Virus genome (UHGV): UHGV-0266262
Length of the DNA: 27,435 nucleotides
Reading direction: 5' to 3' (one strand)
Origin: a virus
The notes beneath the pieces were generated by a model, which ran no database searches, had not been told where the DNA came from, and saw only the letters and a list, made by a program, of their open reading frames with translations. Of the stretch, positions 1 through 21,028 are shown piece after piece (position 1 is the first letter of the stretch; every line of letters begins with the position of its first letter). The position numbers and the translations under genes are program-made.

Positions 1-45
1 TAAATAAAAAACAATCAATCCTCTTATAAAAACATTTTTACTATA

Positions 46-86
46 CATCGCCATGTTGAACGATCAACTATCCAACATGGCGATGT
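46..86. repeat. 14-bp perfect inverted repeat (acatcgccatgttg / caacatggcgatgt) with 13-nt loop, downstream of the tailspike stop
   Basis: Read directly: 46-59 is the exact reverse complement of 73-86. Not followed by a canonical U-run on either strand. Confidence 0.5.
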
Positions 87-229
87 TCATACAGAGATAA
101 AACACTCGTATTAAAAGTAAAAAGTAGTCATCCCATATGGGATATAATTAAAACTATCAATAGCCATATCTTATCTAACAAATCAAGTTACAAACCATAT
201 TTTAACATATATGCGCCCCTGCCTGTGAA

Positions 230-2728
230 TTATAATTTGCATTCATTGTCAAAAAGTTTTTTTTCAATCGCTGCAAGACGTGACTCTATTTTTTCGATTC
301 TTCTACGCAAATAAGCAGACTCAAGCCATAAGCACTGGTCAGCACGGATACCCCACCTATTTCCGGCCTTGCGTACCAGAGTTCGCTCTTCTGTTTCGTA
401 TTCTTCTTCCTTCTCAATTTCGACACCATCCACAACTTCAGTAATCGTCCTGACCGCCATCACTGGCTCGTATTTATCATCCCATTCATCGTAACAGAGA
501 AGGCCAAACCGGGTCCCATCAATCCCATGAGCGAGGAAAGCATCTCGCACCTGTTGTGCTATGACACCAAAATGCCAGCGGGCACCATCTCCCTTTTCCC
601 TGATAGCCTCAAGCCAGCGAAAAGCTACGATCCTGATATCTCCCCATGCATCCAAAATTGCATCACCTTCATAACCAGGGGACATATTCAGACTGAGTTC
701 ACTCGTTGTTAGCGGGTCGCTTTTTTCCCTACCATCTGAGGTGTTTATTGAGCCTGAAACAGCATAAATCTGAGTTGGCCTGTTATCTGGTACACCAACA
801 CTGTAAGAATTATCCAGATAAGGATGCCAGTGACCATTTGGACTTACTTTCCATCTCCAGACATTATTACTTCCTAGATGTAAATCAGCCCCATTCGCAG
901 CCATTAATGCTACATTAGAGGTACTCATATACATCTGAAAATAACCAACGCCTTTTCTCTGCCATTCATAAAGCAAACCGGTTCCTTGCTCGTTGTTGAA
1001 CTTTAGTGCTTTTATAGGTGAGTTTTGTTCCCAGGTTGTATTATCTGAATAAATTACATGAGGAACCGCCTCTGGATTATCAGAGATACATATTTCTTTA
1101 GATGGTAGAGATAGCGTTCTTTTATCTCCTGCACCAAGCGCATAAATCAGAATGGTACGTCTGGTTGCCCCCATAACATCAGAATGTTCAGATACTATTG
1201 TTACCGATGGATAAAGAACGCCATCGTAATCAACAAAATGCATCCCTTCTGACTCGCGGAAGGTAGGGGTAGAGCCAATAATTCTAGGTAAATCCGTATC
1301 ACCCAAATTAGAAATGGCTTTCTGCACATCATTCCCCAACAGATCACAACTTGATAAATATTGAGTCTGCCCAAACTTAGTATTTCCACAATACATATAC
1401 AGATGTGCTCCATCAGAACAAAATCCATTAAGTGATGTTGTTTCATCACCACCGACTTGTGAAAGTTGAAGAGTAAACTCATGAGTACACAGGGCGGAAT
1501 AATCACCGGGTTTATCAAAAATATCAGTGGAAAATACACGAAACGTTTGCTTATTGTATTCGCCATTGTCGGTGAAACGGATAATCATCCATTTTCCGTC
1601 TAATGTAATAGTCGGAGTAGTTGAACTACCCGCTGTACGATTTCCTTCTACAACCCTAAACATTTCAGGAGAATCTATTTCCCCCTCGGAGTTGCTCCTC
1701 CAGGAAAATCTAACAACCCCATGTGAACCACCTACAGAAAAATCAAAGTCAGTATGGGCAGTAGAGCCTGCCGGTGTATCTGGTGCTGTAGTCCATAACT
1801 TAATCGTATTATCTATATTCTGTACCGCTATTCCCTGATGACCCAGCCTGTCCTCAGGAAGCATAAAATCAGAAGATGTATTTTTAATTTTTGAATCAGC
1901 AGAATATTTATTCCAGACAGAAACAGTAGTAGGGTTTCCATCTATTTCTGTATTGTGATTGGAATAATAAGCTCTGCTTACAGGATCATATGCAAAAGTT
2001 TGCAATGTTCTTATCTGTCCGCGACCATTAGCAATTGGTATAAACCGTATAGCGGCATTAGACTCATGTCCAATGGCATTAATGTCCCATGCAGGTCGCT
2101 TGCTTGTAACTAGTTCACCATTAACAGGAATGACTTTCCCTCCAACCAACCATTTCCCGTTAATATAGGTATTCCTGAAAAACGTTCTGGAGGTAAAATA
2201 AGTTTTACCTCGCATATCAACAACCATAGACGTAACATAATCTTCCAGTTGTTCAAATGCCTGTGTATCATCCGCAATGCCATCACCTTTTGCTCCCCAG
2301 CCACGTGGATCTGTTTCATCACGCCATCGTGCAATCTGCAATTCGGAATATTTTTTAGCACCATCCGGGTCTTCTAATTGCTGCCGTAGCTGATCCGGGT
2401 CATACTTCAGTACGTTAGGAAAATAGAACTGCTGCGCTCCATACGCATCATAAACAGCCATAGAATGACCTTGCACAGTTACGAACTTGGAAATCTGTCC
2501 GTTGTATACCGGGTATCCAGCAGCATTGATAACGATTGGCTGTGGCACCTGAACATAAGTACCATCTTCTCGTTCCAGATATACTGGAATCTGGTTTTCT
2601 GGATTTAGCGGATCTGTGTCAATCTTACCGATATAAATTTTTCCATTTGCTACGGTTTTAAAAGAACTAGCCATTGTGAAGAGTTGCGACGGCATACCTA
2701 TCACAACATTTGGAGTTATATTAGGCAT
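230..2728 (-). CDS. Tailspike protein: P22-like N-terminal head-binding domain, divergent central receptor-binding domain, C-terminal intramolecular chaperone (peptidase S74-like) domain
   Basis: ORF 230..2821; first ~120 aa after MPNITPNVV closely resemble my recollection of the P22/Sf6 tailspike N-terminus ([22 protein letters not shown] ... [13 protein letters not shown] ... NVLKYDPDQ). C-terminal ~160 aa carries the S74 chaperone pattern (FRW ... HFGVIAQQV ... YDEW ... [21 protein letters not shown]) preceded by TSDGREK (Ser..Lys spacing). Start set at ATG 2728 (AGGA 9 nt upstream); ATG 2737 or 2821 are possible alternatives. Confidence 0.85.
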
Positions 2729-3068
2729 ATTAGTCATCCTGTTTGAAGATTTAGATATTGAAGAAAACGGAATGACTGCAGACAAAGATGCAATTGTTTT
2801 GAAAAATAACCTTCTATTCATTTAAAAACCATGCAACATGAACAAAACGATTATTTTACAATACTCAAGAATCTTGATCAACAGGCATATTATTTATGCG
2901 CTTAATGCGTCACTTACAAAAATAAAAACAAGTACTACCTTTATTCCTATCGTCCATGATTTTTATTTTCAAACATTATTAAATAACAATTCCTATTTAT
3001 AATATCTGTCATTTAATTTGCTCCAAATACAAGGAATCGCCGCAGTGATTCATTATCAATCAAAAAAT

Positions 3069-3085
3069 ACGACCACCGTGGTATT
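3069..3085. promoter_or_regulatory. Candidate Mnt operator (ACCAC-c-GTGGT palindrome) in the mnt / tailspike divergent control region
   Basis: Palindrome ACCACcGTGGT at 3072-3082, about 65 bp upstream of the mnt start, in a 326-bp AT-rich intergenic region. Resembles the CCACGGTGG core I recall for the P22 mnt operator (recollection, not verified). Confidence 0.4.
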
Positions 3086-3147
3086 ATTGAGGATGCAACC
3101 AGCAGATAATAAGATGCCGATCCACTCACAAGAGCGAGGCATCAAGA

Positions 3148-3399
3148 ATGGGAAGAGATGACCCGCAATTTAATCTGCGGCTACCTTACGAATTAAAGGA
3201 AAAACTAAAACAGCGAGCCAAATCCAATGGCTGCTCTCTTAATTCAGAATTAGTTCAGATAGTGACTGATGCTGTATCAAGGCCATCCAAAATTTCAGGC
3301 TATCGAGACGATGCAGAACGCATCGCTGATGAGCAGTCCGAACTTGTTAAGAAGATGGTGTTTGATACGCTGAAGGATTTGTACAAAAAAACCACCTGA
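3148..3399 (+). CDS. mnt: Mnt repressor (ribbon-helix-helix, Arc/Mnt family)
   Basis: 83 aa; near-identical over the C-terminal half to P22 Mnt as I recall it (GYRDDAERIADEQSELVKKMVFDTLKDLYKKTT) and similar at the N-terminus (MGRDDPQFNLRLPYELKEKLKQRA). GAGG 8 nt upstream of ATG. Confidence 0.9.
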   Translation: MGRDDPQFNLRLPYELKEKLKQRAKSNGCSLNSELVQIVTDAVSRPSKISGYRDDAERIADEQSELVKKMVFDTLKDLYKKTT

Positions 3400-3498
3400 C
3401 GGTGGGTTAATTTTTGCATTTACTTGGGCCATATTGACTACTTATAAAATGAGATCAATATTTAATCGCCCAATAACGGGTGTATGTTGAGGTATATC

Positions 3499-3678
3499 AT
3501 GGCGAAAAAACCAGGTGAAAACACAGGAAAAAACGGCGGAATATACCAAGAAGTTGGCCCACGCGGCGGTAAGAAAGACAATTTTGCCACCGTCAAGGAC
3601 AACGAAAGGCTTCCACCAACAACAAAGCCAGGTCATGTCTGGGTATTGGATAAGCGAACTCCAGACAGCAAAAAGTAA
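3499..3678 (+). CDS. Small conserved hypothetical protein (59 aa), YjzC-like motif; possibly the counterpart of the small ORF between sieA and mnt in P22
   Basis: ATG 3499 with GAGGT 6 nt upstream. Sequence MAKKPGENTGKNGGIYQEVGPRGGKKDNFATVKDNERLPPTTKPGHVWVL has the KPGE..G.Y.E.GP.G pattern of the YjzC-like small-protein family (recollection). Confidence 0.6.
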   Translation: MAKKPGENTGKNGGIYQEVGPRGGKKDNFATVKDNERLPPTTKPGHVWVLDKRTPDSKK

Positions 3679-3683
3679 TAATC

Positions 3684-3705
3684 AAGCCGGTCACTCCGGC
3701 TTTTT
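3684..3705 (+). terminator. Rho-independent terminator for the mnt / 59-aa transcript (possibly bidirectional)
   Basis: AGCCGG-tcact-CCGGCT stem-loop followed by TTTTT on the plus strand; overlaps the last codons of the convergent minus-strand gene. Confidence 0.55.
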
Positions 3706-4056
3706 GATATGTCGCTCGCAGAACTCAACAAGCCTGCTCATTAAGTAGCAGTAAGTCTCGTTGGCTCTTCCTGGTTCAACATCAACACCTACCCTTGAGC
3801 AGATATCGAATGCCATGTGAGCGCACTCATGGGCAATAGTAGATAGTTTGCCATTGAACACGCCTATCACATGCAAAACACCATTCTCGCTACTCATTGT
3901 ATGAGACGCTCCGTTGGCGTCCGAGTCATGCACGTCAACGCCAAGTTTTTGATGCAGGCGTTGCCATTCTGGAAAGTCTCTACAAAACACAATTGTACCG
4001 CTCTCAAAGAGCGGAACGAGCATCTTTGGTACGTTTCCAATGTTAACTTTTTTCAT
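3691..4056 (-). CDS. Hypothetical protein with HExxH motif (possible small zinc metallopeptidase-like protein)
   Basis: 121-aa ORF; motif [14 protein letters not shown] 5 nt upstream of ATG 4056. No family assignment possible from memory. Confidence 0.5.
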
Positions 4057-4086
4057 GGTATCCTGCGCAAAACTAAGGAGGTTGGT

Positions 4087-4581
4087 GTGTCTGATTCTAT
4101 GAGTTACGCTGTGCTAGTTGCCGCAACTCTATTTCTGGGGATAGGGTTGCAGATTGCGTGGTTCTTTTTTTCTAGTTTTATTAAACGTAAAAGAATTGAA
4201 TCAAGGATATCTGAGATTTCTATTGCTATAGGGAAAAATGCTGAAAATCCAGAGAATGAGGCCTGCGCACTGAATTACCTTAAAGAAAAGTTTTCCCCTG
4301 AAAAATTTGAAAACAGAATTACTGATGCTCTTGGATTGGTAATATCAGTAATTCATATGCCACTAAGTTTGCTGATAACAGTGTGGTACTTCGCCATGAT
4401 CGCCGGAAGAATATTTGGTTTCATGAATATAGAGCCTGTAGTTCTTTGGGTTCCAATGATACTGCAATTGTTGTTAAGCTTTGCTATCTTTATTTTTTCT
4501 GTTTTTATAAAAATTGTCTTCGGAAGATACCCCGGAGAAGCGAAGGGATTTAATAAAGAATTCATAAAAACTATAAAATAA
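4087..4581 (+). CDS. AT-rich polytopic inner-membrane protein; candidate superinfection-exclusion protein by position (P22 sieA locus)
   Basis: Three predicted TM helices ([76 protein letters not shown]). Strong SD AAGGAGG 4075-4081 with GTG 4087 (ATG 4099 alternative). Markedly lower GC than flanking genes; opposite strand to the late operon. Confidence 0.55.
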
Positions 4582-4603
4582 ATGCCGTCCTTGGCTTACA
4601 GTG

Positions 4604-6445
4604 CTACTGCCGGGTAGCTTCGTTAACTAAGAGCGGGCGCACGGCAGTAGCCGCCTGATTTAGCGCTCTTTCATAAGCTGGCGTTCCAGCTTTAGTGTTT
4701 GCCAGACGTAAGAGCGCATTCCTTGCTGCTTTGGATTCATACAAGCGCATCATTGCACCGAAACCAGCCTCAAGCCCCATTGATACGCCAAGAGTCGTAG
4801 TTGCGCCAATCGTCCTTATCCTGTTGGCTTGCGATTGCCCCGTCTGAGTTACTACATTTGCGGTGTCTGATCTTGCTGTTTGCTGTAGAACTTCATGAAG
4901 AGCATCAAGTTCTTTCATGTGCTTTCCAGAAAAAATAGTGTTGTAAATTTCACCGCCTGACTGAGATTTCAGCTTATTAACTTCCGTGATGAACTTGGCT
5001 GGAGAGTCACCGGCCTTTTCCGCTATTTTGCTGACGTAAGCTGCACGCATAGCATCTTTCCCTTTATCATCCAATGCGCTCCAGATTCGTTTCACGTCAG
5101 ATGGTTTTCTGCTTAATACAACAGTATTTATAAGTTCAGGACTGGCTTCACTGCTTGCCTTGTTGAGCTTGTTAGCAATGTTTTTATTAAGCACCTTATT
5201 ATAAACGTTTGCATAATCGGAATTTGCTTTAAGGTATTTTGCTGCGTCTGATGCACCGAGGTTTTTTGCAACTGCGTTACGAAGGTCTTTTGACATTGCA
5301 TTCTCTACCATATTGGTAGCTGCTTTTGCCTGGTTGGGGAAGACCATAGCATCCCCCTGAACATTAGATCTAAATGCTGTTCTGTGCTGACGTAGGAGAT
5401 CAAACGTAACATCCAAATCAGTTGCAGGGTTTGCTAATTCTTCACGTAGGTTACGCAAGGATGTAAGCAGGCTTTGATTGGCAGACGTCCCAAGCCGTTC
5501 CTGTCTTGCGATCGCTGTATTCAGAGCATTCATGGTATTTGTGGTATCAACTGCGGCATTACCCATTTTATTGGTGACGTCATTGATAACAGCGCCAGCG
5601 GCCTCCTTCCGTCCCCTTAACGTGGTGGTCAGAGATTTCACCACATCATCAGGGTTGTACTCACCAAAACGGTCAAAATAATTGCTTACCAGCTTACTAC
5701 GCGTTGCATATTGCTCCGCTCGCTTTGAGCCTGTCCCGAGCAAAGCCCCCTCAGCATCCTGAGTAAGTCCGCGAGTGAAAGCATTTTTCGGCGGGATAAC
5801 ATCAGATGTCATTGGTGTCACGCCCATCGATTCTGAGGTGGCAATTTTTTTCGCTACTTCTGGCGCGATATCGCCTTTTATAGCAGTTATTCCACGCCCT
5901 ATTCCCTTTGCTGCTGCGGAAAGAACACCCTGAGCGGCAAGGTTAACTCCGGCGTTTATGGCTGCATTTTGCGCGAAATCGCCTTTCTGGTTCGCGGCTT
6001 CTGCCAGTGATCCAATAGCCATGCTTCCTGCCGTTCCAACTCCTGGAACTAAATACCCGCCAATTGTTTCTCCAGCTTGAGCGTAGGGGTCTGTCGGTCG
6101 ATCGACTGGACGATAGACATCATCCAAAACCTTGGGGCCACCAAGCCCCTGACTGATTGCATTAATCAGACTTGCGCCGCCCTGTAATACGTCAAATGGT
6201 ATGTTTACCAGACCACGACCAGCCTGTTCTGCAATTTGCCCTGCACTTTGACCACCAGTGAGCCAATCGCCAGCTTGTTGCATCAATGATGGTTCTTCCC
6301 GTGTTGGTGCATTATTGGCCTGATTAACTATTTGTTGCTGAACAGCCTGACCAGCAAAATACTCATCAATGGCGGTGCCAATATCTTCGGTGCTCGTACC
6401 ATCAGGAAAGGTAAATGTCTTACCGTTTGCAGTTACTTTCATCAT
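4604..6445 (-). CDS. Ejection (DNA-transfer) protein, P22 gp16-like
   Basis: 613 aa (P22 gp16 about 609 aa); last of three consecutive ejection-protein genes in P22 gene order; ATGA overlap with the upstream gene. Confidence 0.75.

Positions 6446-18859: not shown

Positions 18860-21028
<2,169 letters not shown>

Follow-up and report, generated by a model that had tools for sequence, protein, structure and literature searches.

A P22-like coliphage tailspike with a phi11-type five-bladed propeller between a head-binding domain and a peptidase S74 chaperone

The UHGV virus genome UHGV-0266262 (27,435 nucleotides; hereafter the window, meaning the whole stretch of DNA analysed) carries on its minus strand a tailspike gene whose product joins a P22-type head-binding domain, a five-bladed β-propeller and a C-terminal peptidase S74 chaperone. 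The host of the gene is a CUS-3-like (P22-like, Lederbergvirus-type) Escherichia coli prophage, and the central domain is a divergent propeller of the type seen in Gp45 of Staphylococcus phage phi11, set on an endosialidase-like frame. Domain identities, homologies, conserved residues and mosaic boundaries were obtained directly here, and the three-module architecture is well supported as a variation on the known theme of modular tailspikes. Analogy with phi11-type proteins suggests a mainly lectin-like, adhesive role for the propeller, and adhesin-type binding of a host glycan is rated slightly better than even.

Domain architecture and predicted maturation of the tailspike

The features of the locus are as follows, with the basis of each assignment in brackets.

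2737..2740, minus strand: AGGA ribosome-binding site, 8 nucleotides upstream of the ATG at 2728 (direct reading of the sequence)
230..2728, minus strand: complete tailspike gene, 832 codons plus a stop codon at 230-232 (open reading frame list and translation)
2390..2728, minus strand: residues 1-113, P22-type head-binding (virion-attachment) domain (Pfam PF09008, PDB matches)
2294..2389, minus strand: residues 114-145, helical neck and linker, the crossover zone (AlphaFold2 (AF2) helices 111-137, similarity to the CUS-3 and Pollock genes)
2090..2293, minus strand: residues 146-213, small N-terminal extension domain of endosialidase type, WGAKGDG... (Pfam, CUS-3 identity)
1109..2089, minus strand: residues 214-540, five-bladed β-propeller, the presumed receptor-binding domain
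983..1108, minus strand: residues 541-582, low-confidence linker (predicted local distance difference test score (pLDDT) below 50 in both AF2 models)
740..982, minus strand: residues 583-663, β-stranded stalk ending at the cleavage site (Pfam, BLASTP, PDB, AF2)
722..814, minus strand: predicted autocleavage constellation of D639, R650, T663/S664 (the scissile bond) and K669 (alignment to 3gw6 and 4uw8)
233..739, minus strand: residues 664-832, Peptidase_S74 C-terminal intramolecular chaperone domain (Pfam PF13884, 3gw6, 3gud, AF2)
129..144, minus strand: terminator-like hairpin and T-run, approximately 85 nucleotides downstream of the stop codon (consensus scan only)

The fold of the central region is apparent from two AF2 models. 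The model covering residues 130-645 draws on an alignment of 88 sequences and has a pLDDT of 86.8 and a predicted template modelling score of 0.81, and it resolves the N-extension domain, five four-stranded blades (strands at approximately 225-531), a disordered segment at 540-580 and the β stalk. A full-length model gives matching domain boundaries. The N-extension scores above 90 in both, and the linker at 541-582 probably folds only in the trimer. In a Foldseek comparison with the PDB, the top nine matches are all phage receptor-binding proteins (RBPs), from Staphylococcus (phi11, E 7e-12; 80alpha; P68) and Brochothrix (NF5) phages. An 18-sequence family profile compared with PDB sequences retrieves P68 gp17 (2.2e-11), phi11 Gp45 (3.2e-11) and 80alpha gp61 (2.1e-9) in matches spanning approximately 270-280 of the 307 profile positions, which makes the relationship with the staphylococcal phage RBPs one of homology, beyond a shared fold. 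The family is large: an exhaustive profile search of public genomes and metagenomes with the central domain reaches 302 representative clusters at E up to 0.001. Among 55 members that were scanned (the window protein and 54 relatives), Phage_RBD_prop (PF21311) is matched at E up to 0.001 by 20, the S74 domain is carried by 32 and PF12218 (End_N_terminal) is present in 16. A right-handed β-helix depolymerase of the P22, Sf6 or HK620 type was considered for the central region and rejected, as both AF2 models show a propeller and the PDB sequence comparison finds no similarity to the P22 or Sf6 tailspikes beyond residue ~128.

Across 18 to 88 divergent relatives, Q243, G296-H297, D439, G465 and E492-x-E494 are invariant or nearly so, and in the AF2 models each of these motifs lies on or beside the innermost strand of a blade. 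Alignment with phi11 Gp45 sets Q243 against M164-Q165, H297-Q298-G299 against H209-G210-T211 and position 434 against M329-Q330; the phi11 pocket residue Gln165 thus stands opposite Q243, and Thr211 opposite G299 of the GHQG motif. In phi11 Gp45, Gln165, Thr211 and Gln330 line a central cavity with a modelled N-acetylglucosamine (GlcNAc) (PMC4901313). Both the strand positions and the phi11 alignment suggest that the conserved residues cluster in a pocket of the propeller.

The virion anchor is confirmed. Pfam Head_binding (PF09008) is matched along its full length, profile positions 1-113 of 113 on residues 1-113, with E 8.4e-61 and 203.7 bits against a cutoff of 24. PDB matches of the same residues range from 1e-57 to 1e-41 and include 7sg7 (Sf6 gp14, E 1.3e-57) and the P22 tailspike N-terminal domains (~1e-45). 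An earlier reading of this DNA from its letters alone (the original prediction) had assigned the N-terminal ~120 residues to a P22/Sf6 head-binding domain, and these matches bear it out. Past the neck, the small N-extension domain, of which a GAKGDG..DDT motif is part, has a weak Pfam End_N_terminal match over residues 146-180 (E 0.0077).

Downstream of the propeller, the stalk shows AF2 strands at 584-636, a weak Pfam End_tail_spike match at 631-663 and BLASTP similarity to CUS-3 from residue 631, and the PDB matches 4uw8 and 7y5s begin at residues 622-625. These alignments indicate that this part is homologous to the distal stalks of T5 pb1 and the endosialidases. The S74 chaperone that the original prediction placed in the last ~160 residues is recovered as a PF13884 match at residues 664-735 (E 6.5e-11, 42.8 bits against a cutoff of 22). 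Residues 632-824 align with 3gw6, the K1F endosialidase chaperone domain (E 3e-35 to 3e-36), with further matches to the GA-1 domain 3gud (4e-20) and to T5 pb1, 4uw8 (~1e-13). In the AF2 monomer, a long β-hairpin (752-786) and a C-terminal helix (796-831), with pLDDT of 83-93, correspond to the "tentacle" and coiled-coil elements of solved chaperones.

The proposed Ser-x4-Lys site, TSDGREK, is the sole S-x4-K motif in the protein and coincides with the scissile and lysine positions of both K1F endoNF and T5 pb1. S664 lies opposite the alanine of the uncleavable variants S911A (endoNF, 3gw6) and S1264A (T5 pb1, 4uw8), and K669 lies opposite their lysine. The spacings of -25, -14, -1, 0 and +5 are identical to those of Asp1239, Arg1250, Thr1263, Ser1264 and Lys1269 in T5 pb1, where Asp1239 and Arg1250 of the neighbouring chain form the oxyanion hole and a sensor of trimer folding, and Lys1269 activates Ser1264 for scission between Thr1263 and Ser1264 (PMC4690869). 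With all five residues of the mechanism conserved, proteolytic maturation, as foreseen from the letters, is a well-founded prediction, and the tailspike would be expected to trimerise and to cleave itself. From computed molecular weights, the predicted products are of 73.7 kDa and 19.5 kDa (169 residues), the smaller one exceeding the ~17 kDa first proposed.

A sequence of events can be envisaged on this basis. Residues 1-113 would dock the trimer onto the P22-type tail hub, and the neck (114-145) and N-extension (146-213) would lead into the propeller (214-540) as the receptor-binding unit, with a host surface glycan bound in its central pocket. During assembly, the C-terminal domains would trimerise and template the folding of the stalk (583-663), and R650 from the neighbouring chain, together with D639, would sense correct trimer formation. 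K669 would activate S664 for scission of the T663-S664 bond, and release of the chaperone fragment would leave the 73.7 kDa chain as the mature subunit.

The minus-strand reading frame encoding this protein is single and uninterrupted, and its product has 832 residues and a mass of 93.2 kDa. The start chosen at 2728 gives MPNITPN... and is in register with the first residue of the tailspikes of Sf6 and P22; it is also the start assigned by the Prokaryotic Genome Annotation Pipeline (PGAP) to a near-identical gene (98.7%) in E. coli AST215, annotated "phage tailspike protein". Longer in-frame starts at 2737 and 2821 were rejected, as they have no ribosome-binding site and both the P22/Sf6 N-termini and the PGAP start favour 2728. 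The upstream in-frame extension (2729-2821, minus strand) would add an MNRRLFFK stretch that resembles a Tat signal; it is most likely an artefact of open reading frame calling, because it lacks a ribosome-binding site and sits in an AT-rich spacer. No NCBIfam model matches the tailspike. On the other side of the gene, apart from the hairpin at 129-144, a perfect 13-bp inverted repeat (CATCGCCATGTTG ... CAACATGGCGATG) with a 14-nucleotide loop occupies window positions 47-86, in the AT-rich spacer between the tailspike gene and an adjoining glycosyltransferase gene.

Mosaic boundaries, module distribution and the prophage setting

The gene is a mosaic at the DNA level. Its nucleotides 34-465 are similar to CUS-3 DNA, nucleotides 350-2454 to the DNA of Escherichia phage Pollock and nucleotides 1-2454 to the AST215 gene, and protein alignments are consistent with these boundaries at the neck. 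Because the CUS-3 and Pollock similarities overlap there, the neck is common to otherwise unrelated genes, and its sequence (residues ~117-155) is the likely point of crossover. A second breakpoint lies 45 nucleotides before the stop codon (window 230-274; residues 816-832), beyond which both the tail of the gene and the 3' flank (1-229) differ from the AST215 copy; sequence comparison marks this as a recombination breakpoint inside the gene. The divergent 45-nucleotide tail falls in the terminal helix of the chaperone, within the part discarded after the predicted cleavage. Neither complete E. coli genomes nor phage records yield a match to the 3' flank (window 1-290), which is matched only by metagenomic and isolate contigs that carry an identical gene.

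The original prediction described the central ~550 residues as seemingly unrelated in sequence and lower in GC, in keeping with horizontal acquisition. The first point agrees with the lack of P22/Sf6 similarity. The second stands with a qualification, since the difference is small in total GC (residues 114-663, 0.405; head-binding domain, 0.419; chaperone domain, 0.465; whole window, 0.479) and more evident in the third positions of codons (0.29, 0.37 and 0.40 in the first three of these); the whole tailspike gene falls below the prophage median of 0.49. Horizontal acquisition of the central module is upheld by 79% nucleotide and 81% amino acid identity to Pollock from residue 117 and by the occurrence of the same module on other anchors. 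Its low GC would fit passage through low-GC phages, for example Pollock, whose genome has 36% GC (PMC4319500).

Relatives at 92%, 67-68% and 39% identity have quite different N-termini. The anchors found on the module comprise the P22 head-binding domain (the window and AST215), the N-terminus of Pollock gp76, a Tail_spike_N domain (P0006) and a tail-fibre-type N-terminus (P0002); the last of these is 92% identical in amino acid sequence and is encoded in a prophage with genes for T7_gp14-like and SLT internal virion proteins. The propeller allele detectable by BLAST occurs in one phage (Pollock) among 50,697 phage records and in one of 5426 complete E. coli genomes (AST215), and the identical protein is encoded on at least 20 metagenomic or isolate contigs. 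In two further, abundant clusters of E. coli prophage tailspikes, P0012 and P0019, with ~260 member sequences each, the head-binding domain is joined to a propeller that belongs to this family but is more distant; the C-terminus of P0012 is of a non-S74 kind, and P0019 has an S74 domain and a weak CBM_5_12 match. The design of head-binding domain plus propeller is therefore recurrent, and propeller tailspikes seem to be common in P22-like coliphages but unstudied.

The window in its entirety represents a P22-like prophage, and its nucleotide sequence beyond position 2324 is approximately 96% identical to CUS-3 and phiv205-1, a block that includes the mnt/sieA region together with the genes for injection, head completion, coat, scaffold, portal, terminase and lysis. 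The P22-like set of tail and head genes is complete, as the docking context of the head-binding domain requires.

Several features set this prophage apart in other respects. An IS21-family element lies between the small terminase gene and the lysis genes (18946-20747, plus strand) and contains istA (340 residues, rve integrase core) and an istB split into reading frames at 19965-20252 and 20304-20747; CUS-3 has no such element at the corresponding place. The immunity-I region (2729-3147 and 3148-3399) is reduced to mnt, of the Arc/Mnt family (3148-3399, plus strand), and the window lacks the ant and arc genes that CUS-3 and AST215 have upstream of their tailspike genes. A membrane protein of 236 residues (3871-4581, plus strand) has no match in the Pfam scan, and the precomputed annotation of identical contigs names it PF26849 (SIEA), a superinfection-exclusion protein. 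Near this putative SIEA gene are reading frames of 121 residues (3691-4056, minus strand), which overlaps it, and of 64 residues (3484-3678, plus strand).

Binding, catalysis and the candidate receptor

Comparison is our basis for inferring what the ligand is and that the propeller binds rather than catalyses. A host surface glycan would be expected to bind in the propeller pocket because the conserved motifs align with the sugar-pocket residues of phi11 Gp45. The solved phi11-type relatives are receptor-binding platforms with no catalytic activity described (PMC4901313; PMC6795507; PMC12917162), and T5 pb1 provides a precedent for an S74 chaperone that serves a non-enzymatic fibre (PMC4690869). 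No glycoside hydrolase or lyase family is matched by sequence in Pfam or NCBIfam. The enzymatic central domain suggested by the original prediction, with its hint of a capsule or O-antigen depolymerase, found no supporting evidence in this analysis, and the homologues of the domain are regarded as binding modules.

Context offers no more than a hint as to whether the target is O-antigen or capsule; the receptor is most likely an O-antigen, with the O169-type O-antigen as the only concrete lead. In AST215, the O-antigen cluster encodes proteins to which PGAP gives the names "O169 family flippase" and "O169/O183 family polymerase", and it contains the extra 3' glycosyltransferase that distinguishes O169 from O183 (PMC7685785). 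O169 is a serogroup of enterotoxigenic E. coli, and Pollock was isolated on an enterotoxigenic strain. Within the AST215 O-antigen locus (L004:26172-46415), ISAs1-family transposase genes lie between wzx and cpsG, and because they interrupt the cluster, AST215 may not express a full O-antigen. Contigs 99.97% identical to window positions 1-5822 run into a family-2 glycosyltransferase gene adjoining position 1. This gene (377 residues, 30.6% GC; L007:5823-6956, on the minus strand of that locus) lies convergent to the tailspike gene and is absent in AST215, where intS occupies the place; in CUS-3, neuO lies at the corresponding position. P22 and Sf6 carry O-antigen conversion genes at the same position. 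The family-2 glycosyltransferase is a candidate lysogenic-conversion gene, and its context fits a surface-polysaccharide receptor.

A number of points weigh against glycan binding by a phi11-type propeller and against the O169 assignment. The Phage_RBD_prop match is below threshold (20.0 bits against a cutoff of 23.7, E 5.8e-4) and covers residues 337-497 only; standard annotation misses the propeller here for that reason. At position 434, opposite the phi11 pocket residue Gln330, the tailspike has Asn, its nearest relatives Ser and most others Gln. The AF2 models are monomers and capture neither the trimer nor segment 541-582. AST215, with O169-type wzx and wzy, is the sole lysogen behind the O169 lead and so a single data point, which is weakened further in that lysogens often alter their own receptor. 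For Pollock, the genome announcement gives no host serotype or receptor, and the Moo19/B2 paper cites the phage for phylogeny only; both this tailspike and Pollock gp76 are known from sequence alone. Short-tailed P22-like phages normally must work through O-antigen. To our knowledge, all characterised P22-like tailspikes are enzymes, so that a purely adhesive spike would be unusual for a P22-like virion.

That enzymatic record also favours the strongest alternative, in which architecture and maturation are unchanged and the propeller would be a genuine depolymerase, or an enzyme that modifies glycans, using its His, Asp and Glu-x-Glu residues, a reading regarded as a serious contender at somewhat below even. 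The propeller sits where the catalytic propeller is found in the endosialidase-like chassis, and H297, D439, E492 and E494 belong to the (nearly) invariant set on inner blade strands. The His and Glu-x-Glu motifs are, however, conserved in the binders phi11 Gp45 and P68 gp17 as well and may be structural or ligand-binding. More distant structural neighbours of the propeller are five-bladed glycosidases, but identity to the GH43-type folds is only 6-8%, and the absence of a glycoside hydrolase or lyase match by sequence counts against catalysis. A Klebsiella prophage study counts n-bladed β-propellers as a depolymerase fold, as is done in depolymerase prediction, and states that their role in phages is unclear (PMC12491483). 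The word "propeller" does not appear in the main text of DepoCatalog, which covers 129 recombinantly produced Klebsiella phage depolymerases. A bolder form of the proposal, that phi11-type propellers on Gram-negative tailspikes constitute an unrecognised class of enzymes degrading or modifying O-antigen or capsule, with the present allele specific for O169, is considered rather unlikely.

That the gene is a relic in a decaying prophage, with no working spike as its product, is very improbable. The broken istB of the IS21-family element, the loss of ant and arc relative to CUS-3 and AST215 and the unlike last 45 nucleotides of the gene would suit such decay, but the 832-codon reading frame is intact with every motif residue present, the identical protein recurs on at least 20 independent contigs, the AST215 copy differs by only 8 substitutions before the divergent C-terminal tail, and that tail lies in the part predicted to be discarded.

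The remaining explanation, a K1-type endosialidase tailspike like that of CUS-3 that has merely diverged, is effectively refuted. In its favour are the ~96% identical prophage backbone, the 70% identity of the N-terminal 194 residues, the 38% identity over the stalk end and chaperone and the weak Pfam End_N_terminal and End_tail_spike matches. Against it, residues 195-630 have no BLASTP similarity to CUS-3 or K1F, and the suggested sialidase comparison of the central part yields an hhalign probability of 0.5% for the propeller-family profile against the CUS-3 endosialidase. A central domain of the GH58 sialidase/endosialidase type (K1F, K1E, CUS-3) was accordingly rejected, with no Pfam endosialidase propeller or β-barrel match and a model of five blades, not six, whose best matches are phi11-type proteins.

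Significance and relation to known systems

The tailspike adds a third kind of receptor module to those of P22-like phages, beside the β-helix enzyme and the sialidase propeller of CUS-3. The five-bladed propeller has otherwise been solved only in phages of Gram-positive bacteria and is found here on an endosialidase-like frame with a chaperone. The cassette occurs on P22-like, N4-like and at least two other anchors and thereby illustrates cleanly how host-range modules pass from one phage group to another, unrelated one. Should the propeller prove enzymatic, it would represent a new carbohydrate-active enzyme family and raise the question of whether the staphylococcal RBPs process teichoic acid. 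If the O169 lead holds, the protein could find use in typing or targeting an important serogroup of enterotoxigenic E. coli.

Among solved structures, the central domain bears closest comparison with the RBPs of phi11 (Gp45, 5efv), 80alpha (gp61, 6v8i), P68 (gp17, 6iab) and NF5 (9m7x), and with PF21311, at 13-19% identity to the tailspike. Taken blade by blade, they have in common Q (blade 1), GH (blade 2), (M)QG..D (blade 4) and E-x-EG (blade 5). The phi11-type proteins act on Gram-positive hosts, with GlcNAc on wall teichoic acid as ligand, and their propeller is flanked by a coiled-coil stem and two "tower" domains, without a head-binding domain or S74 chaperone. The stem, platform and tower architecture is absent from the tailspike, in which the flanks are the head-binding domain, neck and N-extension on one side and the stalk and S74 domain on the other. 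Bacillus phage GA-1's neck appendage protein (Q9FZW3) is the best match in a library of viral structures (502 aligned columns, E 1.5e-19, a comparison of model with model), which suggests that it has the same succession of propeller, stalk and S74 domain; it differs in belonging to a phi29-like phage of a Gram-positive host, in its 14% identity and in its virion anchor.

At the C-terminus, K1F endoNF (3gw6) and T5 pb1 (4uw8) share a homologous distal stalk and chaperone with the tailspike (E 3e-36 and 1e-13), with a 12-residue insertion relative to endoNF right after the cleavage motif. Their receptor-binding parts upstream are unrelated to the propeller; pb1 is a non-enzymatic O-antigen binder, and endoNF is an enzyme.

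Pollock gp76 (AIX12435), from an N4-like phage of the Schitoviridae, is the nearest phage homologue of the module, at 81% amino acid and 79% nucleotide identity from residue 114/117 to 806/818, a stretch that takes in the neck, N-extension, propeller, stalk and S74 domain. Where the tailspike has the P22 head-binding domain, gp76 has an N-terminal region of 368 residues, and Pollock is virulent.

A further close system is CUS-3, the P22-like prophage of E. coli K1 strain RS218, with approximately 96% nucleotide identity over the morphogenesis genes. Its endosialidase tailspike (siaK1, ABQ88383) is 70% identical in amino acids over residues 1-194, where the head-binding domain, neck and N-extension lie, and 38% identical over residues 631-824. 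The order of propeller, stalk and S74 domain is the same in both proteins, and the T-S-x4-K site is kept. The catalytic six-bladed sialidase propeller of CUS-3, with its β-barrel insert, is replaced here by an unrelated five-bladed propeller, giving a tailspike of 832 residues as compared with 981, and the downstream neuO of CUS-3 gives way in this lineage to the family-2 glycosyltransferase.

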